Assembly: GCA_021648085.1 (NCBI GenBank)
Contig: JAKITS010000001.1
Span: 132,948-196,947, forward strand
From: Candidatus Magasanikiibacteriota bacterium
Lineage (GTDB): Bacteria > Patescibacteriota > Patescibacteriia > Magasanikbacterales > UBA922
DNA: 64,000 nt
Direction of reading: 5' to 3'
The notes beneath the pieces were generated by a model. It made no database searches, had not been told where the DNA came from, and saw only the letters and a list, made by a program, of their open reading frames with translations. Shown here piece after piece: positions 5,652 to 36,043 of this stretch; the stretch's first letter is position 1, and every line of letters begins with the position of its first letter. A program made the translations under genes and the position numbers.

Positions 5652-6593
5652 ATGATAAAGGCGATTTTGTTTGATTTGGATGGGGTTTTGGTAAATATGC
5701 CTGATGGGCATTATGAAGCTCTAAATAAGACTTTAAATCTTTTTGGTACGCAGATTGAAAGAGAAGAGCATGTGTTAAACTTCAACGGATTACCAACAAG
5801 AAAGAAGGTTGAAAAATTACAAGAGCAGGGGCGCTTACCTAATGGTTTAGTAGAATTAATAAATAGTGTTAAGCAAATACACACAAAAAAAATTATTCCA
5901 AAATATTGTGTACCAGATTATTCAAAAATTATTTTGTTAAAACAGTTAAAGAAAAAAGGATATAAATTGGCTTGTTGTTCAAACTCTGTAAAAGAAACTT
6001 TACATTTAATGCTTAAATCTGCACAGTTATTTGATTATTTTGATTTTATTATAGGCAATGATGAGGTTGTTAATTCAAAGCCAGATCCAGAAATATATCT
6101 CAAAACATTTGAAAAAATGGGTTTAAAGCCAAATGAATGTATTATTGTGGAAGATGCTCCACCTGGTGTTGAGGCAGCAAAGAGAAGTGGTGGTATTGTA
6201 TACCAAGTAAAAGGTGTTGAGGATGTTAACTTATCTTTGTTTAAAGATTTATTATTGAACAAAATACAAAAAACTTTAAAATTAAGTGATTTTACAAAAG
6301 GTTGGATTATTGGTGATTTTGATTTGAGTATTTTAAAAACTAAGGATTTTGAGGTCGCCATAAAATATTATAAAAAAGGAGATTTAGAACCTGAACATGT
6401 TCACAAAATAGCAAGAGAAATTACAGTTTTCATTTCTGGAATTTTTAAAATGAATGGTAAAGAATTTAGAAAAGGTGAAATCATGGTTTTGGATCCTAGT
6501 GAAAGTAGCAGTTTCGAGTGTTTAGAAGATGGATTTATTATAGTAATTAAAACACCATCAGTTGTGGGGGATAAATATATAATTAATAAGTAA
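5652..6593 (+). CDS. HAD-superfamily hydrolase (beta-phosphoglucomutase-like) fused to a C-terminal cupin domain
   Basis: N-terminal 'ILFDLDGVLV' HAD motif I, 'SNS' motif II and 'GNDEVVNSKPDPE' region. C-terminal ~100 aa 'GWIIGDFDL...EPEHVHK' is cupin-like. Confidence 0.6.
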   Translation: MIKAILFDLDGVLVNMPDGHYEALNKTLNLFGTQIEREEHVLNFNGLPTRKKVEKLQEQGRLPNGLVELINSVKQIHTKKIIPKYCVPDYSKIILLKQLKKKGYKLACCSNSVKETLHLMLKSAQLFDYFDFIIGNDEVVNSKPDPEIYLKTFEKMGLKPNECIIVEDAPPGVEAAKRSGGIVYQVKGVEDVNLSLFKDLLLNKIQKTLKLSDFTKGWIIGDFDLSILKTKDFEVAIKYYKKGDLEPEHVHKIAREITVFISGIFKMNGKEFRKGEIMVLDPSESSSFECLEDGFIIVIKTPSVVGDKYIINK

Positions 6594-6597
6594 TATT

Positions 6598-7353
6598 ATG
6601 TCAAAAACACTAAATATAATAATTCCAATGGCAGGAAAAGGATCTCGTTTTAGAGATGTTGGTTATACATTTCCAAAACCTATTATAGATATAAAAGGAA
6701 AAACAATGATTGAGGTTGTAATAAACAATCTTAAGCCAGATTGTGACCATAAGTTTATTTTTATTTGTCAGAGAGAGCATTATGAAAAATATGATCTTTA
6801 TAATATTTTAAAAAACGCTACAGACAATAAGTTTGAAATTGTACAAATAGATGGTATTACAGAAGGTGCTGTTTGTACAGTTCTTTGTGCTCTACAATAT
6901 ATAAACAATGAAAATGATATTGTGATAGCAAATTCAGATCAGTTTATTAGTATGGGATTGAATGATTTTATTAATGACGCTAGATGTGGGGATAAGGACG
7001 GGTTGATTATGACTTTTAAAGCAAGTCACCCTAAGTGGAGTTATGCTAGAGTAGGTGAGGACGGTAATGTTGTGGAAGTGGCAGAAAAACGAGTAATTTC
7101 AGATAAGGCAACTGTGGGAATTTACTATTTTAAATCAGGTAAAGAATTTATAAGATCTGCACAGTCTATGATAGAAAAGGATATGCGACATAATAATGAA
7201 TTTTATGTTTGTCCTGTGTATAATGAAATGATTTTGGAAGATAAAAATATAGGTATAAAAAACATAGAAGTGGAAGAGATGCACGGTTTAGGAACGCCAG
7301 AGGATTTAAATGAGTTTTTGAAAAAATTAGATGGTGGAAGTGTAAAAATTTAA
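6598..7353 (+). CDS. Sugar-phosphate / phospho-alcohol nucleotidyltransferase (LicC/RmlA-like)
   Basis: N-terminal 'IIIPMAGKGSRF' nucleotidyltransferase P-loop-like signature. Confidence 0.65.
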   Translation: MSKTLNIIIPMAGKGSRFRDVGYTFPKPIIDIKGKTMIEVVINNLKPDCDHKFIFICQREHYEKYDLYNILKNATDNKFEIVQIDGITEGAVCTVLCALQYINNENDIVIANSDQFISMGLNDFINDARCGDKDGLIMTFKASHPKWSYARVGEDGNVVEVAEKRVISDKATVGIYYFKSGKEFIRSAQSMIEKDMRHNNEFYVCPVYNEMILEDKNIGIKNIEVEEMHGLGTPEDLNEFLKKLDGGSVKI

Positions 7354-27694: not shown

Positions 27695-27766
27695 GGCCTA
27701 TTCGTCTAGTGGTTAGGACGCCGGGTTCTCATCCCGGTAAGAGGGGTTCGATTCCCCTATAGGCTA
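27695..27766 (+). tRNA. tRNA-Glu (anticodon CUC)
   Basis: Cloverleaf with acceptor GGCCTAT/ATAGGCT, anticodon arm 'CCGGG TTCTCAT CCCGG' and T-arm 'AGGGG TTCGATT CCCCT'. No encoded CCA. Confidence 0.75.
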
Positions 27767-27796
27767 CATATAGATCTATTTAAAAATAAATCTAAT

Positions 27797-27870
27797 GGCT
27801 GGGTAGCTCAGTTGGTAAGAGCGCAGGATTCATAACCCTGAGGTCGGGAGTTCGACTCTCCCCCCAGTCA
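27797..27870 (+). tRNA. tRNA with CAU anticodon (elongator Met or Ile2-lysidine type)
   Basis: 'GGCTGGGTAGCTCAGTTGGTAAGAGC' D-arm, anticodon loop 'TTCATAA', T-arm 'GGGAG TTCGACT CTCCC', G1 pairs with C72 so it is not an initiator. Confidence 0.75.
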
Positions 27871-27878
27871 CAGAGGAA

Positions 27879-27914
27879 AGCAAATTAGGCAGAATAAGCA
27901 GATTAAGTAAGTAC
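27879..27914. repeat. Motif C (~32-35 nt), copy 1 of 3
   Basis: 'AGCAAATTAGGCAGAATAAGCAGATTAAGTAAGTAC'. Matches the reverse complements of 47661-47692 (28/31) and 38862-38893. Confidence 0.55.
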
Positions 27915-27950
27915 AAAAACAAAAAAACTCCATTTGGAGTTTTTTTTGTT
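27915..27950 (+). terminator. Intrinsic terminator after the tRNAs
   Basis: 'AAAAAACTCCATTTGGAGTTTTTTTT'. Confidence 0.65.
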
Positions 27951-28103
27951 TTAAGTTTTTACTTAACTACGTAGTAGTCTTAGTTCTTAACCTCGGAGAG
28001 GTCTTGTATAGTGGGTTGCATTATAGCAATAAATCAGAATACATTATATAATATATAGTATTGATAAAATGCAATCTTATGAAAAATAATGTTGTACAAA
28101 AAT

Positions 28104-28136
28104 TTGGGAGTTGAGATTGTAGATTTAATAAAATAA
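28104..28136. repeat. 33-bp direct repeat (left) flanking the rhuM cassette
   Basis: 'TTGGGAGTTGAGATTGTAGATTTAATAAAATAA', 30/33 identical to 29241-29273. Encodes the '...LGVEIVDLIK*' end of a 15-codon remnant ORF. Confidence 0.7.
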
Positions 28137-28138
28137 AT

Positions 28139-29161
28139 ATGATAAAAGACAAACCAAACAATAAAATAATTATATATACGGCTGACGGCGGTAATCCAAC
28201 AATTAATGTTCGTATCGAAGGAAAAACTGTATGGCTTTCACAAATTCAATTGGCTGAACTTTTTGGAACATCAAAAGCAAATATTAGCTTACATATTAAA
28301 AATATCTTTGAAGAAGGTGAATTAAGTAAAGAACCAACTGTTAAGGAATACTTAACAGTTCAAAAAGAAGGAGATAGAGATGTTTCTCGTCATATAGAAT
28401 ATTATAATCTAGACCTCATAATATCTCTTGGTTATCGGGTAAAGTCGCAAATCGCAACTCACTTTCGAAAATGGACAACAGAACGTCTTAGTGAGTATCT
28501 CGTAAAAGGTTTTACCATGGACGACGAACGACTCAAAGGTATGGGTGGAGGAAGCTTTTGGAAAGAATTACTAGATCGTATTCGTGATATCCGAAGCAGT
28601 GAAAAGGTGCTGTACCGCCAAGTGTTGGATTTGTATGCGACTAGTGTTGATTATGACCCAAATAGCTCTGAATCAATCAAGTTTTTCAAAATAGTACAAA
28701 ACAAACTTCATTATGCCACAAACAAAAATACTGCAGCTGAAACTATTTTTACACGCGCGGATGCCGAAAAAGATTTTATGGGTTTGAAAACATTTGCAGG
28801 TATATTACCAATATTGTCAGAAGTTGGGGTTGCCAAAAACTATCTTACCGAAGACGAGTTGTTTATATTAAACCGTATGGTTTCGGCTTTCTTTGATTTG
28901 GCAGAAATAAAAGCAAAAGAACAGAAAAAAATGTATATGGCAGACTGGGTGGCAGAGTTGGATAAATTTGCTGAAAATTATGGAAAGGGTGTTTTGAAAG
29001 ATGCAGGAAAAATAAGCCATAAACAAGCAGTAAAAAAAGCTCAAAAAGAATACAGACAATTTCAAGCTAAAACATTATCACCAGTTGAGGAGGCGTATTT
29101 GAAAAATATCAAAAACATACAAAAAGAGGTTGAACAAAAAACCAAGTCTTCTAAAAAATAA
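28139..29161 (+). CDS. rhuM: RhuM-family virulence/Fic-DOC-related protein
   Basis: N-terminal 'IIIYTADGGNPTINVRIEGKTVWLSQIQLAELFGTSKANISLHIKNIFEEGEL' is the hallmark RhuM block. Length 340 aa. Confidence 0.7.
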   Translation: MIKDKPNNKIIIYTADGGNPTINVRIEGKTVWLSQIQLAELFGTSKANISLHIKNIFEEGELSKEPTVKEYLTVQKEGDRDVSRHIEYYNLDLIISLGYRVKSQIATHFRKWTTERLSEYLVKGFTMDDERLKGMGGGSFWKELLDRIRDIRSSEKVLYRQVLDLYATSVDYDPNSSESIKFFKIVQNKLHYATNKNTAAETIFTRADAEKDFMGLKTFAGILPILSEVGVAKNYLTEDELFILNRMVSAFFDLAEIKAKEQKKMYMADWVAELDKFAENYGKGVLKDAGKISHKQAVKKAQKEYRQFQAKTLSPVEEAYLKNIKNIQKEVEQKTKSSKK

Positions 29162-29162
29162 T

Positions 29163-29273
29163 ATGGAAAAATTAAAAGTAAATTTAGAATCAGGGAAACA
29201 AAATCCAACATTTGAAATAATTGCGAAAATTGTTGAAGAGTTGGGGGTTGAGATTGGAGATTTAATGAAATAA
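29163..29273 (+). pseudogene. C-terminal half of an XRE-type HTH protein (36 codons), probably a gene remnant
   Basis: 'NLESGKQNPTFEIIAKIVEELGVEIGDLMK' matches helix 3 to the C-terminus of HTH_XRE ('ERGKRNPSLETLLKIAKALGVSLDEL'). The N-terminal helices are missing. It starts 1 nt after the rhuM stop and ends with the right 33-bp direct repeat. Confidence 0.45.
29241..29273. repeat. 33-bp direct repeat (right) flanking the rhuM cassette
   Basis: 'TTGGGGGTTGAGATTGGAGATTTAATGAAATAA'. Confidence 0.7.
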
Positions 29274-29319
29274 TTATTATGATAAATTCAAAATAGGCAA
29301 AATCAAGAATAAAAATAAA

Positions 29320-29358
29320 TAAACTCCTTGAAGAGTCAGGTTGGAGTTTTTTTGTTTT
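29320..29358 (+). terminator. Intrinsic terminator
   Basis: 'AACTCCTTGAAGAGTCAGGTTGGAGTTTTTTTGTTTT'. Confidence 0.5.
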
Positions 29359-29439
29359 CTAAGATATTTTGTATTTTTGTAGTTTTTTGCTACCATAATA
29401 ATATATTGTTGAAATAATAAGAAATGTTTAGAATATGGT

Positions 29440-30087
29440 ATGAGAATTAAAAATAAATTAAAAATTGAGCGTCCTAGGGAGAAAATGAAAAAATACGGCC
29501 CTGAAAAACTAAAAGATGAAGAGCTTTTGGCAATTTTATTACGCACTGGTACGAAAAAAATGGATGTAATTAAATTAGCTCAAAAGATATTACGTGATTT
29601 TAAAGATGAGAAAATTCTTGATGTAACTATTGTTGATTTGCAGAAAATTCATGGTTTAGGTTTAGCAAAAGCATGTGAAATCGTGGCATGTTTTGAGCTT
29701 GGACGTAGAAAATTACAAGGAAAGAAAACAAATATTTTACTTACACCAAAAGATGTCTGGGAAGCAATGGTAGATATTCGTAATAGTAAAAAAGAACATT
29801 TTGTTGTTTTTTATCTTAATAGCAGAAGTCAAGAAATCAAACGAGAGATTGTTTCGATAGGTACAATAAATGCGAGTCTTGTCCATCCACGGGAAGTTTT
29901 TGAGAGTGCAATTAAAAACAATGCTTCATCAATAATTCTTGCTCATAATCACCCATCTGGAGATCTTGAACCGTCACAAGATGATATAGAAATTACAAAA
30001 AAACTTGTTTATGCAGGAAAAATTTTGGATATTCAAGTGGTTGATCATGTAATAGTATCTAATAAAGAATTTAAGAGTTTTATATAA
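29440..30087 (+). CDS. radC: RadC-like JAB/JAMM-domain protein
   Basis: 'ILAHNHPSGDLEPSQDD' JAMM motif. N-terminal 'EELLAILLRTG' helix-hairpin-helix region. Confidence 0.85.
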   Translation: MRIKNKLKIERPREKMKKYGPEKLKDEELLAILLRTGTKKMDVIKLAQKILRDFKDEKILDVTIVDLQKIHGLGLAKACEIVACFELGRRKLQGKKTNILLTPKDVWEAMVDIRNSKKEHFVVFYLNSRSQEIKREIVSIGTINASLVHPREVFESAIKNNASSIILAHNHPSGDLEPSQDDIEITKKLVYAGKILDIQVVDHVIVSNKEFKSFI

Positions 30088-30088
30088 A

Positions 30089-31291
30089 ATGCCAAAAAAT
30101 AATATTATAATTAATGATGGGGGATATTATGCTATAAAAGGTTTTGCTTATCAAATAGATAAAGCAATTTTAGAAATCTTAAATACTGATGACGAGAGTA
30201 AAAGTATAAATATTGAGCAAATTCAAGACATAGATTTAGCTGATTCAGTTATACAAGTTAAATATAAAGAAACTACTAAGCTAGTTCCCTCTCAAGTAAA
30301 CAAGCCAATATCACAACTCATTGAAGAATTTAAAGTAGATAACACAAAAAAATATATTTTGTATACTTATTTTGATGACTTAAATGGATATGAGGAAAAA
30401 GTAGATCAAGATAAAAAAATTTCAAAGGATACTTTGGATGAATTTTTAGGGAACCTAAAAAATGATTTTACAGAACAGGAAAGAATAGACTTTGTTAATA
30501 ATTTTTATTTAGATTTTTCTCCAGAGTTTCAATCTCAATTTAATTCTGTAATTTTAAAATTAAAAGAACAGAGTTTTATTGGAAATACTGACGAAGAGGC
30601 AATGTTTTATTATGCAAATATTTCAGACTTTTTGTATAAATTAGTCACAAATAATCCAACCATAAAAATTAAAAACAGGACGTGTACTCAAAAAGAAATA
30701 TTTGATTATTTAAAAAACGGTAAGTGTCTAATCTTTAATTCTAGTTTTAGAGAATATCAAGGTGATCAAAAATATTTTACTTTTATTAAAAAACAACATT
30801 TTTCTAATAGAAATATAGATTATTTTGAAAGATTCATTATTGTAGAATTAAGTAGAAATGAAAGCATTGCAGATATAAAAGAAGTTGTTTTTAAAATTAA
30901 AGATGCATTTTATAACAAATCAGGAACATGGAGAGGTAAAGTAATAAAATCTCCTGCCCCGTATATTTATATGATTAATATTTCAGATGATAGTTTAATT
31001 CAGTTAAAAACTGAATTATTAAAAGAAAGTACAATTTTCAAAGATGGTTTTGATTTTGCTGGTGCTAATTTTTCTTTAGATTCAATAAAACAAAATTCTA
31101 CAATCCACAACAATCTTTGTTTAAAATTAGTTAATAATGAAGATATTTTAAAGCGATTAATAAGTGAAGATTTTCAACATCCAAAAGAAATTTATCAATT
31201 TTACACAAATGAAAGTATTATAATTAAACCTAATATGAAAAATATTGAAATACAAATAAAAAACATATCAGATATTATTTTTATTCTTTAA
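30089..31291 (+). CDS. DUF4297 (Cap4-type nuclease domain)-like protein, putative partner of the HerA-like ATPase
   Basis: The N-terminus 'GGYYAIKGFAYQIDKAIL' resembles the DUF4297/Cap4-nuclease N-terminal signature as recalled. It lies 11 nt upstream of a HerA-type ATPase, matching the gene order of the DUF4297-HerA defence pair. No SIR2 motif. Confidence 0.5.
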   Translation: MPKNNIIINDGGYYAIKGFAYQIDKAILEILNTDDESKSINIEQIQDIDLADSVIQVKYKETTKLVPSQVNKPISQLIEEFKVDNTKKYILYTYFDDLNGYEEKVDQDKKISKDTLDEFLGNLKNDFTEQERIDFVNNFYLDFSPEFQSQFNSVILKLKEQSFIGNTDEEAMFYYANISDFLYKLVTNNPTIKIKNRTCTQKEIFDYLKNGKCLIFNSSFREYQGDQKYFTFIKKQHFSNRNIDYFERFIIVELSRNESIADIKEVVFKIKDAFYNKSGTWRGKVIKSPAPYIYMINISDDSLIQLKTELLKESTIFKDGFDFAGANFSLDSIKQNSTIHNNLCLKLVNNEDILKRLISEDFQHPKEIYQFYTNESIIIKPNMKNIEIQIKNISDIIFIL

Positions 31292-31302
31292 CTTAAAATA
31301 TC

Positions 31303-33012
31303 ATGACAAATTCAACTGATCAAAAACTTGCTTTCGTAACTTCCGTTTATCCAAATAAAGTAAAAATTGAAGTAGAAAATCTAACTGCTTTTAAAGATAA
31401 TATAGATGACGCACTTGGTGATTTAAAAATTGGCTCTTATCTTGAAATTTCTGATAATGAAGGTTGTAAACTTATTGCTATTATTGAAAGCTATCAAATA
31501 GAATTAAAAGAAAGAATTATAGAAAATGAACAAGGTGAAAAAAATAAAGAAACTTACAACGCTTACGTATTAGAAGCTAGTCCTCTCGGTACAATAAAAG
31601 GTAAAGAATTTACTAGAGGTGGCGATGCTTTGACTATTCCACCAACAGAGGTAGGACCTGCAAGTGAAGAAAATATAAAATTAATTTATGAAAATGGATT
31701 TGAGCCACAAGAAAAGTTTTTATTTGCAAAATTAGCACAAGATGAAAATATTGAAGTTCCTGTAAATGGGAATAAATTTTTCAATAAACATTTCGCAATT
31801 GTTGGGTCTAGTGGTTCAGGGAAATCGCATACGATAGCAAAAATTATACAAAAAGCTGTTGCAGAGAAAAATGGTGAATTCGAATTAAACAATTCTCACA
31901 TTATAATATTTGATATTCACAACGAATATAAAACAGCTTTCCCAGATGCCAACTTTTTGGATATTAGCAACTTAGTTTTGCCTTATTGGTTACTCAATAG
32001 TGAAGAATTAGAAGAACTATTTATTGATACGGAAGCTAATGACCACAATCAAAAAAATGTTTTCAAAGAATCAATTGTAACGAATAAAAAGGACAGTTTA
32101 ATTAAAGAAGATGGTGAAAGTCATGAAGATTTTAACAATAGAAAAGAAAAGATTCATTATGATTCTCCTGTTTTGTTTGATATTCAAAAAGTTTTGGAAT
32201 TTGCTCAAAACAAAAATCAAGAAATGGTTCCAGGTGCAAATAATAAAGAAAAACAGGGTTCATTATTTGGAAAATTAACCAATTTTGTCAGTAGATTAGA
32301 GAATAAATTGAATGATAAAAGATTTGAATTTTTATTAGGAGATAATTCAAAAGAAATTTCTTTTGAAGATACTTTGAGACAATTTATTGGATATAAAGAT
32401 GACAATAAATCAAATGTAACAATTATTGATTTAAGTGGTGTTCCTTTTGACGTTCTTAGTGTCACAGTAGCTTTAATTTCAAGAATATTATTTGATTATG
32501 GATATTTTTATAAAAAATATTTAAACGAAGGTGTTGATTTGGAAACTCCATTATTGCTTATATATGAAGAAGCACATAAATATGTACCAAAAAATGATTT
32601 TGCAAAATTTAGAGCATCGAGGAATGCTATTGAAAGAATTGCAAAAGAAGGAAGAAAATATGGTGTAACTTTAGGTATTATAAGCCAAAGGCCATCTGAA
32701 ATATCTGAAACCATCTTCTCTCAATGCAATAACTTTATTGCTATGAGATTAACAAATCCAACTGATCAGAATTATGTAAAAAGATTGTTACCAGATACAT
32801 TGGGGAATCTAATTGATAATTTACCATCATTACAATCTGGAGAAGGACTTTTGCTTGGAGAATCAATAATTATGCCATCTTTAGTTAAAATAGAAAAATG
32901 TGATAACGATAAACAGCCATCTTCAAATGATGTGAAATATTTGGAAACATGGAAAGAGGAATGGAAAGATGTTGATTTTAATAACATAATTAAAAAATGG
33001 AAATATGAATAA
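31303..33012 (+). CDS. HerA/FtsK-superfamily ATPase (DUF87-like)
   Basis: Walker A 'VGSSGSGKSHT', Walker B 'LLLIYEEAHKYVP', the 'AKEGRKYGVTLGIISQRPSEIS' arginine-finger block typical of HerA/VirB4-type ATPases, and an N-terminal beta-barrel-like region. Confidence 0.75.
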   Translation: MTNSTDQKLAFVTSVYPNKVKIEVENLTAFKDNIDDALGDLKIGSYLEISDNEGCKLIAIIESYQIELKERIIENEQGEKNKETYNAYVLEASPLGTIKGKEFTRGGDALTIPPTEVGPASEENIKLIYENGFEPQEKFLFAKLAQDENIEVPVNGNKFFNKHFAIVGSSGSGKSHTIAKIIQKAVAEKNGEFELNNSHIIIFDIHNEYKTAFPDANFLDISNLVLPYWLLNSEELEELFIDTEANDHNQKNVFKESIVTNKKDSLIKEDGESHEDFNNRKEKIHYDSPVLFDIQKVLEFAQNKNQEMVPGANNKEKQGSLFGKLTNFVSRLENKLNDKRFEFLLGDNSKEISFEDTLRQFIGYKDDNKSNVTIIDLSGVPFDVLSVTVALISRILFDYGYFYKKYLNEGVDLETPLLLIYEEAHKYVPKNDFAKFRASRNAIERIAKEGRKYGVTLGIISQRPSEISETIFSQCNNFIAMRLTNPTDQNYVKRLLPDTLGNLIDNLPSLQSGEGLLLGESIIMPSLVKIEKCDNDKQPSSNDVKYLETWKEEWKDVDFNNIIKKWKYE

Positions 33013-34402
33013 AATATACACAACAAAAAATGATGTATTAAAAGAAGCTAAGAAAATTCTTAATCAATCTTTGCGTGATATAATGATTGATAATAATATT
33101 GATATTGAAAAATTGGAACAAAAACTTTTTCAATATAATAAAAGACGAAAAGGACTTTTGGGTGAGTTGGTTGAGGAATTCGTTTTTGGGCTTAATGTAA
33201 ATAATAATGCTGAGGCAGATTTTGTTATTGCTGGTATAGAATTAAAAACCAATCCACTTAAAAAATCTAATAAAAAAGATTTTGTTTCTAAGGAACGTTT
33301 GGTTTTTTCAATGATTAATTATAATAAAATAGTAAATGAAACATGGGAAAATAGTTCATTTCTTAAAAAAAATAAAGTTCTTTTGCTGATGTTTTATCTG
33401 TGGCTTAAAGATCAGAGTATTTTGGATTATGAGTTTAAATTTGTACATTTACTTGACTTACTAAATGGTCTATCTGGTGAAGATATATATCAAATACAAA
33501 AGGATTGGGAATATATTGTCGCAAAAATTAAACGGGGAGAAGCTCATTTGTTGTCTGAAGGGGATACGTATTATTTAGGTGCTTGTACAAAAGCTGCAAA
33601 TAGTAGGGTTGTACGTGACCAACCAAAATCACGTATATTAGCAAAACCAAGAGCTTTTTCTTTTAAACAACAATATTTAAACTTTTTAATTCAAAAAGAA
33701 TTACTCGGTAAGTCTGTAGATACAGAATCAATTTTTAAGAAAAAACGACGATTAGCTACGGTAGAAGATATTGTAAAAGAAAAGTTTTCTAAATTTATAG
33801 GAAAAACAGATCTTGAGATTAAGAATATTGTGGGTTGGGAAATTGAGAAAAAACCAAAAAGTTGGAAACGTCTTTTGGCAAATAGAATGCTCGGTGTTAA
33901 ATCAAATAAAATTGAGGAATTAGAAAAAGGAAATATAAAAATGAAAGTAATTACATTGGAATATACAGGTACTCTTAGGGAATCACTTTCTTTTCCAGCA
34001 TTTAATTATAAAGATTTAATAACACAGGTTTGGTATGATGACGAAAATCAGAAAATGAGTGATTTATATGAGTTATTAGAAACGAAAAAATTTTTATTTG
34101 TTGTATTTCAAAAACAAAAAGATAGTAAAGAGATTATTTTTAGAAAAATAAAATTTTGGAATTTTCCAATGAAAGATTTGTTGGAAGTTAGAAATGTATG
34201 GGATAAAACAATTGATTGTATTAATAATGGAGAATATAAAAATTTACCAAAAATGAGTGAGAATGGTGTTGCTCATGTGCGACCGCATGGAAAAAATTCA
34301 AAAGATACAATAGAAACTCCACAAAAAACACAAGAAACAAAAAGGTCATTTTGGTTAAATGCAAAGTATATTCAAAAAGTACTCGAAAATGATATTGATT
34401 AA
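33005..34402 (+). CDS. MutH/Sau3AI-family type II restriction endonuclease (GATC-family candidate)
   Basis: 'EADFVIAGIELKTNP' aligns with the E. coli MutH catalytic block 'EQDFAALGVELKTIP' (D, E-x-K). Further blocks 'SKERLVFSMINY' and 'QKDWEYI...GEAHLLSEGDTYYLGACTKAANS...AKPRAFSFKQ' resemble Sau3AI as recalled. The start overlaps the HerA stop (ATGAATAA). Confidence 0.65.
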   Translation: MNKIYTTKNDVLKEAKKILNQSLRDIMIDNNIDIEKLEQKLFQYNKRRKGLLGELVEEFVFGLNVNNNAEADFVIAGIELKTNPLKKSNKKDFVSKERLVFSMINYNKIVNETWENSSFLKKNKVLLLMFYLWLKDQSILDYEFKFVHLLDLLNGLSGEDIYQIQKDWEYIVAKIKRGEAHLLSEGDTYYLGACTKAANSRVVRDQPKSRILAKPRAFSFKQQYLNFLIQKELLGKSVDTESIFKKKRRLATVEDIVKEKFSKFIGKTDLEIKNIVGWEIEKKPKSWKRLLANRMLGVKSNKIEELEKGNIKMKVITLEYTGTLRESLSFPAFNYKDLITQVWYDDENQKMSDLYELLETKKFLFVVFQKQKDSKEIIFRKIKFWNFPMKDLLEVRNVWDKTIDCINNGEYKNLPKMSENGVAHVRPHGKNSKDTIETPQKTQETKRSFWLNAKYIQKVLENDID

Positions 34403-34456
34403 AATTTGATCAATATCATTATTTTTGTTAAAATATAATTAATAAATTTTTTTAAT

Positions 34457-35704
34457 ATGAAAATAATAAGAGTGGTTGAATTATTTGCTGGAGTCGGAGG
34501 GTTTCGAATCGGGCTTAAACAAGCAGATAATGAAAAAGTGAAATATAAAACTATTTGGAATAGTCAGTGGGAACCAAGTACAAAAACACAACATGCTTCA
34601 GAAATATACAAAAAACATTTTGGTGAAAAAGGACATTCTTGTGAGGATATTAGAAATGTTGTTGATAATAAATTTCACACAATTCCTGAACATGATTTAT
34701 TAGTTGGTGGTTTTCCTTGTCAAGATTATTCTGTAGCACGTACAGCAAATCAAGCAAATGGTTTAATTGGTAAAAAAGGTGTTTTGTGGTGGTCTATTTT
34801 TGATATTTTAAAAAAAAGTGGAGAAAAAGCTCCCAGTTTTTTATTGTTAGAAAATGTTGATAGACTTCTTAAATCACCAACTAAACAAAGGGGGCGTGAT
34901 TTTGCTGTAATGCTCTCCTCTTTGGCTTCACTTAATTATATAGTGGAATGGAGGATTATTAATGCAGCAGAATATGGTTTTCCACAACGACGAAGACGTG
35001 TTTTTATTTTAGCTTATAAAAAAGGAACAAAACTTAATAAAAAAGCACGGAATATAAATTTAGAAGATTGGATAAATAAAAAGAGTGTAATGGCAAAAGG
35101 TTTTCCTATTTATAAAAATAATAATTTGTTAACCTCGTTTCAGATTAACACTAATCCGGCTAAAGTTTCTGAAGAATTTTCAAAAAATTCTCCAAAAATA
35201 AGTCCTTTTTATAATAGTGGTATAATGATTGATAATAAAATATATACAAAAAAAGTTCATCCAAAATATAATGGTAAAAAAGTAATTCTAAAAGACGTTT
35301 TAATTGATGAGAAACATGTACCGGAAGAATTTTTTATTGATGAGAAAACATTTGAAAGGTGGAAATATTTAAAAAATAGTAAAACAGAAAAGAGATGTAC
35401 TAAAGATGGTTTTGAATATAGTTATTCAGAAGGTGGTATGATTTTTCCAGATAATTTAGAGAATGCATCTAGGACAATTGTGACAGGTGAAGGAGGCTCA
35501 TCACCTTCAAGGTTTAAACACGTTATTAAAACAAAAACAGGACGTTTACGCAGATTAACACCAATAGAATTAGAACGACTTAATATGTTTCCAGATAATC
35601 ATACAGAAGGTGTATCAAATACAAAACGAGCTTTTATAATGGGTAATGCTCTTGTTATCGGTGTTATCAAAAAATTAGGTCAAACACTTTCAGACTTTAT
35701 ATAA
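34457..35704 (+). CDS. DNA (cytosine-5)-methyltransferase
   Basis: Motif I 'ELFAGVGGFRIG', motif IV 'GGFPCQDYS', motif VI 'ENV', and a target-recognition domain between. Confidence 0.9.
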   Translation: MKIIRVVELFAGVGGFRIGLKQADNEKVKYKTIWNSQWEPSTKTQHASEIYKKHFGEKGHSCEDIRNVVDNKFHTIPEHDLLVGGFPCQDYSVARTANQANGLIGKKGVLWWSIFDILKKSGEKAPSFLLLENVDRLLKSPTKQRGRDFAVMLSSLASLNYIVEWRIINAAEYGFPQRRRRVFILAYKKGTKLNKKARNINLEDWINKKSVMAKGFPIYKNNNLLTSFQINTNPAKVSEEFSKNSPKISPFYNSGIMIDNKIYTKKVHPKYNGKKVILKDVLIDEKHVPEEFFIDEKTFERWKYLKNSKTEKRCTKDGFEYSYSEGGMIFPDNLENASRTIVTGEGGSSPSRFKHVIKTKTGRLRRLTPIELERLNMFPDNHTEGVSNTKRAFIMGNALVIGVIKKLGQTLSDFI

Positions 35705-35711
35705 ATTCATA

Positions 35712-35750
35712 AAAAACAAAAAAAACTCCTCTCGGAGTTTTTTTTGTTTT
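35712..35750. terminator. Bidirectional intrinsic terminator (island end / hup end)
   Basis: 'AAAAAACTCCTCTCGGAGTTTTTTTT' flanked by an A-run and a T-run. Confidence 0.7.
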
Positions 35751-35758
35751 GAGTTTTT

Positions 35759-36043
35759 TTATCTTCTTCCTTTCAAAGTATCTTTCAGTGTTTTTCCTGC
35801 TTTGAATTTTGGTACAATTACTGGTGGAATTTCTATTTTGATGCTTGGATTTCTTGGGTTTACGCCAATTCTTCCAGCACGTGTTTTTGCACTAAACGCT
35901 CCAAAACCTGCAATGTTTACAAATCCGCCAGTGTTTAATGTATTTGTGACTATTTCCACAAACGCAGAAACCATTTGCACAGCTTCTTTTTTAGATACAC
36001 CAACTTTTTCAGCTATTTGGTTTGATAGTTCTACTTTGTTCAT
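35759..36043 (-). CDS. hup: DNA-binding protein HU
   Basis: 94 aa, 'MNKVELSNQIAEKVGVSKKEA...GFGAFSAKTRAGRIGVNPRN'. Confidence 0.85.
   Translation of the reverse strand: MNKVELSNQIAEKVGVSKKEAVQMVSAFVEIVTNTLNTGGFVNIAGFGAFSAKTRAGRIGVNPRNPSIKIEIPPVIVPKFKAGKTLKDTLKGRR

Follow-up and report, generated by a model that had tools for sequence, protein, structure and literature searches.

We show that, in a 64,000-nucleotide stretch of a Candidatus Magasanikiibacteriota genome (hereafter, the window), the candidate defence gene rhuM lies between two direct repeats, H1 (TTGGGAGTTGAGATTGTAGATTTAATAAAATAA) and H2 (TTGGGGGTTGAGATTGGAGATTTAATGAAATAA), which are identical at 30 of 33 positions and, judged by their sequence, are the tails of decayed XRE-family regulator genes, comprising the last ten codons, the stop codon and the bases up to the next start codon. 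These repeats most likely mark a joint for single-gene swaps within a 7.7-kb island that has no integrase, rather than a trace left by a transposon or an integrase. The evidence comes from the repeats themselves, from a metagenomic contig (L124) that carries the same pair of tails without rhuM, from a close relative (L144) that lacks the island, and from a survey of rhuM genes across many phyla. The features of the repeat region are as follows.

28089 to 28136, + strand: stub ORF of 15 codons (MLYKNLGVEIVDLIK, then stop), its stop codon 2 nt ahead of the rhuM ATG
28104 to 28136, + strand: H1, left repeat, matching both H copies of L124
28136 to 28141, + strand: AATATG stop/start junction, left boundary of the rhuM indel relative to L124
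28139 to 29161, + strand: rhuM, intact, 340 aa (PF13310, E=6e-103; PADLOC PDC-S05, E=8e-144)
29160 to 29165, + strand: AATATG stop/start junction, right boundary of the rhuM indel; wider motif AAAATAATATG
29163 to 29273, + strand: 5'-truncated XRE ORF of 36 codons (C' plus H2), beginning 1 nt past the rhuM stop
29241 to 29273, + strand: H2, right repeat, 32/33 identical to H2 of L124
29279 to 29296, + strand: mini-ORF ATGATAAATTCAAAATAG, the empty slot behind H2; in L124 a 198-aa gene begins at the equivalent ATG

Allowing up to three mismatches, we found exactly two copies of the 33-mer in the 64-kb window and none in 100 shuffled versions of it. The ungapped similarity between the two copies covers 45 nt at 84% identity (28099-28143 and 29236-29280), running past the stop codon into ...ATGAT, and each copy constitutes the final 10 codons and stop codon of an XRE-HTH gene. 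The preliminary description of this locus was thus right that the similarity is not due to chance, that both copies encode in frame the C-terminal tail of an XRE-HTH protein, that the left copy ends a 15-codon ORF and the right copy a 36-codon half-HTH ORF, and that the HTH N-terminus is absent from both sides, neither copy being joined to an intact XRE gene. Its statement that rhuM sits exactly between the repeats holds in part: the gene does lie between them and is abutted by H1, but the spacing is asymmetric, with H2 beginning 79 nt past the rhuM stop codon. DNA folding predicted no hairpin for either copy on either strand (-0.3 to -0.8 kcal/mol, no better than for shuffled sequences), Rfam returned 0 families within H, and no inverted repeats bracketing the rhuM unit were found.

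The 36-aa product of the right-hand ORF covers only positions 28 to 55 of the 55-position HTH_3 profile (PF01381) and is colinear with residues 36 to 69 of the intact 69-aa XRE protein P0243, the one useful intact relative from a full HMMER scan. The complete five-helix domain (positions 1 to 55) is present in neither copy, the left one keeping 10 codons, and a 47-aa extended frame used as a protein query retrieved itself only. The truncated ORF is most likely a relic because its counterpart in L124 has no in-frame start codon, and the 36-aa "helix-turn-helix domain-containing protein" annotated here is probably a gene relic, not a regulator. Upstream of H1 we detected no significant homology, whether to the XRE half-gene or to L124; a permissive gapped alignment of ~75 nt, considered as a hidden N-terminal half or a longer left copy, was rejected as no better than shuffles. 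We also judged as spurious a resemblance to XRE proteins seen in another reading frame across the 3' end of rhuM, which lies in a Lys-rich, A-rich native tail that is common to P0003. The intact XRE genes ending in ...LGVEIGDL[IM]K that the preliminary description had suggested seeking do exist, in other Patescibacteria (L098, L102, L107). At the DNA level H1 and H2 are 91% identical to each other, compared with only 76% to an intact XRE gene with a near-identical peptide tail. A degenerate-pattern DNA scan of metagenomes returned 54 loci, of which 45 were irrelevant and the relevant ones were solely L124 and intact XRE genes. The 45 comprise contigs of ~51-60% GC that encode a conserved ...FGVEIADLIK... 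protein, and three eukaryote-like low-complexity contigs (L101, L104, L112). In viral contigs, the H core gave chance matches only.

One of these loci, L124, is a 1.1-kb contig unrelated to the window; it carries the same two XRE tails in unchanged order but lacks rhuM between them (H1, ATATG, C', H2, ATATTATG, 198-aa gene). C' is ~78% identical between the two loci and the flanks outside H1 and H2 are unrelated, while the rhuM indel is ORF-precise, amounting to 1024 nt with AATATG at both bounds. Because L124 shares H1-C'-H2 without rhuM and has unrelated outer flanks, homology between the two loci breaks on the left border of H1, at the junction that directly follows H1, and immediately behind H2. 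All three breakpoints fall at the edge of a repeat copy, an apparent hotspot that consists of three breakpoints from a single comparison with one related locus. Both genomes share copy-specific junctions, with the stop codon followed by ATATG behind copy 1 and by (A/T)TATTATG behind copy 2, and the duplication is therefore older than the difference in rhuM presence; rhuM may have given rise to it in an earlier ancestor, and L124 could represent a secondary loss of the gene. In terms of slots, the window holds rhuM in slot 1 and nothing in slot 2, whereas L124 has an unoccupied slot 1 and another gene in slot 2. The recurrence of the stub and the half-XRE gene in a different context also fits one of the options raised in the preliminary description, namely joint movement of the cassette and a partial HTH.

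The wider motif at the rhuM 3' junction is identical to the hsdM/rhuM and rhuM/hsdS junctions of close relatives. It also resembles the hsdM/rhuM junction of L082 (19/20 positions), a short, A-rich match that we treated as a junction motif and not as a second rhuM remnant. The junction microhomology is not specific, because gene junctions of the form AATATG/TAATATG are generic in a genome as AT-rich as this one, whose + strand has 13 copies where 19 would be expected. Ahead of rhuM, the 15-codon stub ORF may act as a coupling leader, and stub ORFs built from the ends of neighbouring genes also precede rhuM in L010 and L018, ending 1-9 nt before its ATG. This idea is weakened because the best promoter-like site (28061-28090, a match no better than chance) would put the start of transcription beyond the ATG of the stub. 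No Shine-Dalgarno-like sequence was found near the ATG behind H.

On a larger scale, the rhuM module belongs to a block of DNA that is variable between relatives. The closest relative, L144 (PBP2 80% identical), is colinear with the window except for ~7.7 kb (~28013-35758) that are missing between tRNA-Met and hupB, giving the order pilT-PBP2-tRNA-Glu-tRNA-Met-T-S-hupB-rny-truB..., and a more distant relative carries a different insertion in the same interval. The elements of this island and its borders are listed below.

27797 to 27871, + strand: tRNA-Met(CAT), from ARAGORN and Rfam
27912 to 27960: T1, resident bidirectional terminator hairpin behind tRNA-Met, from a terminator scan and the L144 empty-site alignment
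27961 to 28012: S, homologous to the tRNA-Met/hupB intergenic region of L144, from the L144 alignment
29321 to 29358: T2, terminator-like hairpin that closes the rhuM module
29440 to 30087, + strand: radC (Pfam/PADLOC), absent from L144
30089 to 31291, + strand: DUF4297-like gene (Pfam/PADLOC), absent from L144
31303 to 33012, + strand: HerA (Pfam/PADLOC), absent from L144
33005 to 34402, + strand: MutH/Sau3AI-like REase (Pfam/PADLOC), absent from L144
34457 to 35704, + strand: C5 DNA methylase (Pfam/PADLOC), absent from L144
35710 to 35758: T3, second copy of the 49-nt terminator repeat, abutting the hupB stop codon at 35759 and forming the right island edge

The tRNA-Met gene and the tRNA-Glu gene before it (27695-27767) form a conserved left anchor of the variable region, since the pair is also present in L144, and the left edge of the island lies at ~28012, where the homology of S to L144 ends. 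T1 and T3 are the two copies of a 49-nt direct repeat with 86% identity; the 3' arm and T-tract of T2 (TTGGAGTTTTTTTGTTTT) recur in both, a low-complexity similarity of moderate weight. We rejected T1, T2 and T3 as simple target-site duplications, as segment S lies on the wrong side. The cargo consists of defence-type genes only (rhuM, radC, a DUF4297-HerA pair and a type II R-M system), and annotation of all island ORFs with Pfam and PADLOC revealed no integrase or transposase. The 3' end of tRNA-Met occurs once in the window and is not duplicated at the distal border of the island.

The rhuM gene itself is a full-length family member, aligning to positions 2-248 of 252 of PF13310 with 344 bits (cut-off 33.7), and PADLOC classes it as the candidate defence gene PDC-S05. 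Homologues from Patescibacteria are 75-82% identical to it and occur in type I R-M or rhuM-GmrSD contexts, the closest ones lying between hsdM and hsdS/hsdR or ahead of a GmrSD-like gene; no DNA-level match to it was found in E. coli genomes. RhuM-family genes are typically embedded in restriction-modification operons (Anantharaman et al. 2013, PMC3710099), a context that does not define the family, and the window gene resembles these and other PDC-S05 genes of defence islands in being a full-length RhuM among defence genes, but it is solitary, with no adjoining hsd gene, and bracketed by XRE gene tails. XRE genes do not appear to be conserved partners of rhuM, as a search of 80 loci gave 0 matches to an XRE fragment near rhuM and only 3 of 111 loci have an XRE gene no more than 2.5 kb away from rhuM. 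The literature describes RhuM coding sequences annotated with a dinD domain. A role of RhuM as a nuclease or recombinase is unsupported, given a poor AF2 model (pLDDT 64.5), weak, DdrC-like fold matches and no sequence relative in the PDB.

A survey of other rhuM loci revealed a strong enrichment of flanking direct repeats around this gene. Direct repeats of 25-240 nt flank 11 of 71 rhuM genes from genome and metagenome loci and 2 of 29 from viral contigs, so that ~13% of ~100 rhuM loci from many phyla are repeat-flanked, compared with 2 of 311 neighbouring ORFs (Fisher p ~1e-7). These repeats consist of local sequence (the tail of the upstream gene, the head of the downstream gene, or a terminator) and differ from locus to locus, and the right copy begins within 15 nt of the rhuM stop codon in 8 of the 13 repeat-flanked loci. 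In L064, L025 and L065 the tail of the upstream gene is duplicated around rhuM, and the reverse arrangement, with the head of the downstream gene, is seen in L010 and L018; in L064, L025, L010 and L018, unlike in the window, one copy is continuous with an intact target gene. In L065, two tandem rhuM genes are 92-98% identical over a common stretch of 190 nt (hsdM tail plus rhuM head) and 57-63% identical outside it, which marks sharp recombination boundaries. L078 contains a cassette array with four direct repeats of 50-58 nt, and in L002/L004 and L078 short repeats are locally dispersed. The differences between coding repeat copies affect 18 codons synonymously and 9 nonsynonymously, with 22 of 32 changes at third positions, a bias that fits copies that diverged within functional genes and were then joined by recombination. 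We found no account of neighbour-derived direct repeats around rhuM in the searchable literature.

Taken together, these observations lead us to propose that cassettes are exchanged independently of a recombinase at a joint formed by the XRE tail and its stop/start junction, a reading to which we give a little less than even weight. Under this proposal, the stub tail H1, slot 1, the 5'-truncated XRE gene (C'-H2) and slot 2 would form a portable module at the tRNA-proximal edge of the integrase-less 7.7-kb defence island. The XRE tail and the A-rich stop/start junction (TAA-n-ATG) would serve as the recombination joint, at which segments could be gained, exchanged or lost by host homologous or microhomology-mediated recombination, with no involvement of a dedicated recombinase. 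Possible routes include single-crossover integration of a circularised cassette, unequal crossing-over, and slippage between AATATG junctions. The truncated gene tails would be scars left over from these events, and may double as leaders that couple translation to the following ORF. The route of recombination, the sequence of events and a possible role as leader are what we infer from the comparisons above. A broader version places the mobility in rhuM (PDC-S05) itself, as a recombinase-less, single-ORF mobile cassette that would copy 25-240 nt of its neighbour each time it enters an operon junction, a gene end or a terminator by short-homology recombination. The copied relic, whether tail or head, would afterwards serve as an expression leader and supply homology for a further transfer, the two XRE tails of the window would represent one joint of this kind, and RhuM, a wHTH protein, might promote recombination; we regard this version as unlikely.

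The closest competitor to the joint model is a one-step duplication, in which rhuM inserted behind an intact XRE gene and copied its last ~111 nt (C+H), the upstream XRE gene was later cut down to the H1 stub, and L124 lost rhuM through a deletion between the two AATATG junctions. The duplicated segment begins 1 nt past the rhuM stop, in keeping with the short distances seen at most other repeat-flanked loci, where upstream-tail copies and their mirror image both occur, and repeats are ~20-30 times commoner around rhuM than around its neighbours, which makes a connection with rhuM itself the economical assumption. Nevertheless, in its simple form, as the preliminary description had it, the insertion of rhuM with duplication of the tail of an intact target gene is not supported, as no intact XRE gene is joined to either H copy and the pair occurs in L124 without rhuM. 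At least three extra events would be required. Ahead of H1, neither genome retains a detectable remnant of the XRE body, and with unrelated flanks there the truncation would need to have happened twice within ~5 nt, or before transfer; moreover, the synonymous bias at other loci argues against an identical start followed by neutral decay. We consider a one-step origin possible but doubtful. It is also conceivable that the tails are plain relics of two adjacent paralogous XRE genes, for example from a phage-type immunity region, that decayed independently, with ordinary paralogy behind the similar tails, no mechanistic role for them and rhuM between them by chance. The pair in L124 does adjoin an Ant-like anti-repressor, a phage-like regulatory setting, its half-gene is without a start codon, and the same peptide tail ends intact XRE proteins. 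However, the two copies are far closer to each other in DNA than either is to an intact gene with nearly the same tail, all three breakpoints fall at H edges, and unrelated repeats bracket a given gene by chance in only ~0.6% of cases (the 2 of 311 control ORFs), making independent decay distinctly unlikely in our view.

Other explanations attribute the repeats to function or to machinery acting in trans. H could be a cis-element, such as an operator or a signal for translation initiation or coupling, kept by selection or gene conversion rather than left as a recombination scar. Between the window and L124, H is conserved at 41 of 45 positions and C' at 63 of 81, a difference that is suggestive only (p=0.085, not significant); one H copy per genome directly precedes an intact gene (rhuM here, the 198-aa gene in L124), and stubs in front of the rhuM ATG recur in L010 and L018. 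Against this, the other copy in each genome precedes no functional gene and is still conserved, and H comes with no Shine-Dalgarno-like sequence, RNA structure or Rfam match; we give the cis-element little credence. Even less probable, in our estimate, is an attachment site for a site-specific recombinase provided in trans, of the integron attC, Xer/dif or tRNA-island att type. The alternation of filled and empty slots behind each H copy, the repeat array of L078 and the adjoining tRNA genes speak for such a site, but the island ORFs include no recombinase gene, H lacks dyad symmetry and hairpins on both strands, and the far side of the island has no copy of the tRNA-Met 3' end. In addition, rhuM-flanking repeats elsewhere vary in sequence and in length (25-240 nt), and they are therefore incompatible with one recognition site. 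Of the site-specific insertion or cassette exchange put forward in the preliminary description, cassette-like variable DNA is supported and a site-specific event is not, with no integrase or transposase in the island, no hairpin and no flanking inverted repeats. Finally, a dispersed REP- or MITE-like repeat, chance similarity or an assembly artefact is hardly credible. Local short repeats do occur in L002/L004 and L078, and the perfect repeats of L087 (25 nt) and L002 (38 nt) could be related to assembly, but the H copies differ at 3 positions, follow the reading frame of an XRE tail and recur as the same pair in an independent assembly. The window holds two copies against none in the shuffles, and the metagenome and viral scans gave only L124, intact XRE genes and chance matches, which is not the picture of the dispersed repeat that the preliminary description had kept in mind as its alternative.

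The genomes of Patescibacteria are very small and contain few classical mobile elements. The locus described here appears as a defence island that was assembled and remodelled without an integrase, with relic tails and duplicated terminators at its module borders. If true, the joint model would account for the spread of single defence genes, rhuM among them, from phylum to phylum and for their entry into operons, as at hsdM/hsdS, without disrupting these. Regardless of the model, the excess of neighbour-derived direct repeats around rhuM is a regularity that can be checked in well-sampled pan-genomes.

The arrangement shares features with several known systems. As in Campbell-type integration, the direct repeats on either side of rhuM are homologous to part of a resident gene, the copies at other rhuM loci show the synonymous bias expected of donor and recipient alleles, and the tandem genes of L065 have sharp homology boundaries; by contrast, neither copy in the window is continuous with an intact target gene, and the homologous segments are very short (25-190 nt). 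Like tRNA-adjacent islands, the 7.7-kb defence block lies beside tRNA-Glu and tRNA-Met and is absent from L144, but it has no integrase and no duplicated tRNA 3' end, and it is bounded by two copies of a resident terminator. Integron cassettes and Xer dif modules also consist of single-ORF cassettes in slots between short repeated sequences; here, however, there is no attC-like palindrome or hairpin, no IntI or other recombinase among the annotated island ORFs, and the repeat varies by locus. In contrast to insertion sequences and transposons, the rhuM unit comprises rhuM and ~110 nt only, with no transposase or terminal inverted repeats, and in contrast to a short target-site duplication of fixed length, the repeat is 33-45 nt long with 3 mismatches and the pair is present in L124 without rhuM. 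REP and MITE elements differ too, as H has two copies in the window, one other locus in the metagenome scan and none in viral contigs.

The orphan modules of rhs and cdiA-CT arrays offer a possible further parallel. In these arrays a short 3' fragment of the upstream gene precedes each cassette, and the fragments are homologous to one another, which allows the downstream cargo to be exchanged without a dedicated recombinase. The window differs from them in having only two copies and no intact master gene, and in that its fragment derives from a regulator gene rather than a toxin gene. In the window, H1 stands before rhuM, and C'H2 stands before slot 2, unoccupied here but filled in L124, an arrangement of fragment and cargo that may correspond to theirs.

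The rhuM gene lies between two 33-bp direct repeats, a left copy (H1) and a right copy (H2), which agree at 30 of 33 positions and are the sole matches to each other in the 64-kb window when up to three mismatches are allowed (0 in 100 shuffles). Ungapped similarity spans 40-45 nt (28099-28143 and 29236-29280), running beyond the stop codon into ...ATGAT. The module is arranged as follows:

28089-28136: 15-codon ORF ended by the left repeat copy, with its stop 2 nt ahead of the rhuM ATG
28139-29161: rhuM, encoding a full-length PF13310 protein (E=6e-103)
29163-29273: 36-codon truncated XRE ORF ended by the right repeat copy, beginning 1 nt past the rhuM stop

Of the 55 positions of the HTH_3 profile, the 36-aa product covers 28-55 only, and it is colinear with residues 36-69 of P0243, an intact XRE protein of 69 aa. 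Repeat positions, ORF ends and profile matches thus confirm the preliminary description, which had reported two copies at these positions, the right one closing a 36-codon partial HTH ORF and the left one a 15-codon ORF.

Metagenome contigs were scanned with the degenerate pattern LGVEIxDLxK, and the majority of matches were irrelevant. The scan recovered intact 69-aa XRE genes with the tail ...ALGVEIGDLIK in L098, L102 and L107, as well as L124, a 1.1-kb contig of 28% GC that carries the repeat pair without rhuM. There, H1 is a short tail copy, GAGTTGAGATTGGAGATTTAACAAGATAG, and ATATG and the remaining half-XRE part (C') follow directly; this C' is ~78% identical to that of the window and has no in-frame start codon. 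H2 matches the window H2 at 32 of 33 positions, and ATATTATG after it starts an ORF of 198 aa, behind which lies an Ant-like anti-repressor whose N-terminus (phrog_5817) occupies 1002-1130 at the contig end. The XRE relics of L124 are placed in a phage-like regulatory region, and beyond H1 and H2 we found no homology to the window. The same stub and half-XRE pair in these unrelated flanks supports the earlier proposal that the cassette moves together with a partial HTH. Compared with L124, the window has an extra 1024 nt, the rhuM ORF plus one base, between AATATG junctions at 28136-28141 and 29160-29165. In both loci, the first copy is followed by stop+ATATG and the second by stop+(A/T)TATTATG, and these shared, copy-specific junctions make the duplication older than the difference in rhuM presence. 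In this comparison with one sister locus only, and a short one, all three homology breakpoints fall at repeat-copy edges: one where H1 begins on the left, and one each at the junctions that follow H1 and H2.

On a larger scale, we compared the window with L144, the closest relative reached (PBP2 80% identical), which is colinear with it in the order pilT, PBP2, tRNA-Glu, tRNA-Met, terminator, ~70 nt, hupB, rny, truB and onward. In L144, only ~136 nt separate tRNA-Met from the hupB stop (compare L144 5032-5170), whereas the same interval in the window holds ~7.7 kb absent from L144. The island and its flanks are laid out as follows:

Upstream of the rhuM module: tRNA-Glu, tRNA-Met and the bidirectional terminator T1
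27912-27960: T1, copy of the resident terminator at the left end of the island
27961-28012: S, 52-nt segment homologous to the L144 tRNA-Met/hupB intergenic region
~28013-35758: island with rhuM (PADLOC candidate defence class PDC-S05), the truncated XRE ORF, radC, a DUF4297-HerA pair, a MutH/Sau3AI-like restriction enzyme and a C5 methylase
29321-29358: T2, weaker third terminator copy directly after the rhuM module
35710-35758: T3, copy of the resident terminator at the right end of the island

T1 and T3, which are 86% identical, make up a direct repeat of 49 nt. The position of S, to the left of the island in the window and behind the one terminator that L144 has, rules out T3 as a simple target-site duplication. 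Neither an integrase nor a transposase is present among the island genes (~28013-35758), and a repeat of the tRNA-Met 3' end was not found. L147 3441-9947, from a more distant Magasanikbacteria relative, is a different insertion of 6.5 kb between tRNA-Glu and tRNA-Met, with genes for a histidine kinase, response regulators and Big-domain proteins. In the Magasanikbacteria lineage, the tRNA-Glu/tRNA-Met/hupB interval is a variable spot, and the rhuM unit, given the lack of the island in L144 and the other insertion in L147, is the first module in a defence island located there. Within the island, the end of the HerA ORF (33012) and the start of the restriction enzyme ORF (33005) overlap by 8 nt, so the DUF4297-HerA pair and the type II R-M genes appear translationally linked in one operon.

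The aspect most worth pursuing is the cross-phylum excess of neighbour-derived repeats at rhuM. For loci of many phyla, the 400 nt 5' of rhuM were compared with the 400 nt 3', and a direct repeat was counted at a score of at least 20. The genome and metagenome set yielded 11/71 positives, namely nine independent loci and two rhuM genes found among the 'controls' (L010 5389-6420 and L078 3814-4800), and an independent set of viral contigs yielded 2/29; the 311 controls, ORFs near rhuM in the same loci and each 250 aa or longer, include only 2 that score as high (Fisher p ~1e-7). These repeats measure 25-240 nt, have a different sequence in each locus and are built from adjacent sequence. In L064, L025 and L065 this is the 3' end of the upstream gene (its final 14-28 codons); in L010 (5324-6486) and L018 (861-1955) it is the opening 10-17 codons of the downstream gene, which leave a stub ORF with its stop 1-9 nt ahead of the rhuM ATG; and in L002/L004, L087 and L192 it is a terminator. 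The duplicated head derives from a GmrSD-like gene in L010 and, in L018, from a putatively type III res-like ORF. The right copy begins at most 15 nt past the rhuM stop in 8 of 13 cases. Direct repeats at the Moraniibacteriota rhuM genes of L004 (237 nt; 5731-5967 and 7083-7319) and L002 (48 nt; 5898-5945 and 7047-7093) have the same terminator inside, and several dispersed 66-80-nt repeats lie near these genes.

Two loci carry more than one rhuM. Behind a fragmented hsdM, the tandem rhuM genes of L065 (5916-8178) have in common a segment of ~190 nt, made of the hsdM tail and the initial 35 codons of rhuM, at 92-98% identity, with about 57-63% elsewhere, a step that marks sharp recombination boundaries. 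L078 (3742-7060; Bacteroidales, downstream of asnB) is an array in which a repeat of 50-58 nt, R, present as four direct copies, separates three cassettes (asnB, R, rhuM(-), R, MNT/HEPN-like pair, R, rhuM(+), R); no recombinase was found within this 10-kb locus. Coding repeat copies differ chiefly at synonymous sites (18:9 codons), third positions accounting for 22 of 32 changes. This bias fits poorly with identical duplication and a neutrally decaying relic copy. It is more in keeping with copies that accumulated their differences as parts of functional genes before recombination joined them, or with a functional copy later replaced by an allele.

The nearest rhuM homologues (75-82% identical) were found in other Patescibacteria, in three contexts: type I R-M operons (XRE-hsdM-rhuM in L081; hsdM-rhuM-...-hsdR in L082-84, L196 and L198), ahead of a GmrSD-like gene (L085, L200), and solitary (L087). 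XRE genes were not regular rhuM neighbours in the loci compared. The hsdM/rhuM and rhuM/hsdS junctions of the operons both read AAAATAAT-ATG, identical to the rhuM 3' junction of the window, although TAATATG is a generic gene junction in the window's genome. Window 29156-29175 (AAAATAATATGGAAAAATTA, rhuM stop/next-ORF start) matches L082 2992-3011 (hsdM stop/rhuM start) at 19 of 20 positions of a short, A-rich sequence, a score reached by 0 of 500 shuffles. At the contig end of L081 (3940-3976), the RhuM ORF (C-terminus of P0002) continues into ...SPHILRHSFATHL, similar to conserved box II of tyrosine recombinases, and may thus adjoin a fragment of a recombinase gene there. Published work treats RhuM as a predicted toxin that is embedded in R-M loci (PMC3710099) and describes its enrichment near programmed inversions (PMC9881135); the literature searched contained no mention of flanking repeats around rhuM.

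The AlphaFold model of RhuM (window 28139-29161; model m39a71b6e183a), for which 45 homologues were used, has low confidence (pLDDT 64.5), with an N-terminal winged helix and a helical C-terminal part; its best solved-structure matches are weak ones to the Deinococcus DNA-binding protein DdrC (E 4e-3, TM 0.23-0.33), and RhuM has no sequence relative in the PDB. As model, structure matches and PDB sequence comparison gave no nuclease or recombinase signs, that RhuM might mobilise its own gene remains a speculative idea only.

We tentatively favour the reading that the XRE tail and the stop/start junction form the recombination joint of a modular, recombinase-less cassette system. Segments would be swapped at this joint via host homologous or microhomology-mediated recombination, rhuM would be one exchangeable ORF, and the truncated XRE tails would be scars that may also act as coupling leaders. 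The main rival is the one-step model of the preliminary description, in which the insertion of rhuM duplicated the C-terminal half of XRE, truncation of the left gene came later and rhuM was secondarily lost from L124. Such a scenario neatly accounts for the start of the half-XRE 1 nt past the rhuM stop and draws support from the general association of rhuM with flanking repeats, but it requires several additional events and an H1 truncation that was independent or preceded transfer, and its simplest form is disfavoured by the rhuM-less arrangement of L124; we consider it unlikely.

Ranked below these, the H pair could simply be what remains of two paralogous XRE genes, which we hold to be improbable. 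The window has no other XRE paralogue. H matches no Rfam family, and neither of its strands folds into a hairpin or shows dyad symmetry; its being a conserved cis-element is quite improbable. Slimmer still is the chance that a recombinase acting in trans uses it as a site; no inverted repeats bracketing H were found. The preliminary description had named a general dispersed repeat as the finding that would overturn it; scans of the window, metagenome contigs and viral contigs speak against this, and we reject it, a dispersed repeat or assembly artefact being the most improbable origin of all.

The cassette idea itself was right in spirit, whereas site-specific insertion duplicating its target is not shown, and L124, which has the pair without rhuM, tells against the simplest version of it. 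The locus is an instance of cassette turnover bounded by homology within a defence island, a known kind of process.
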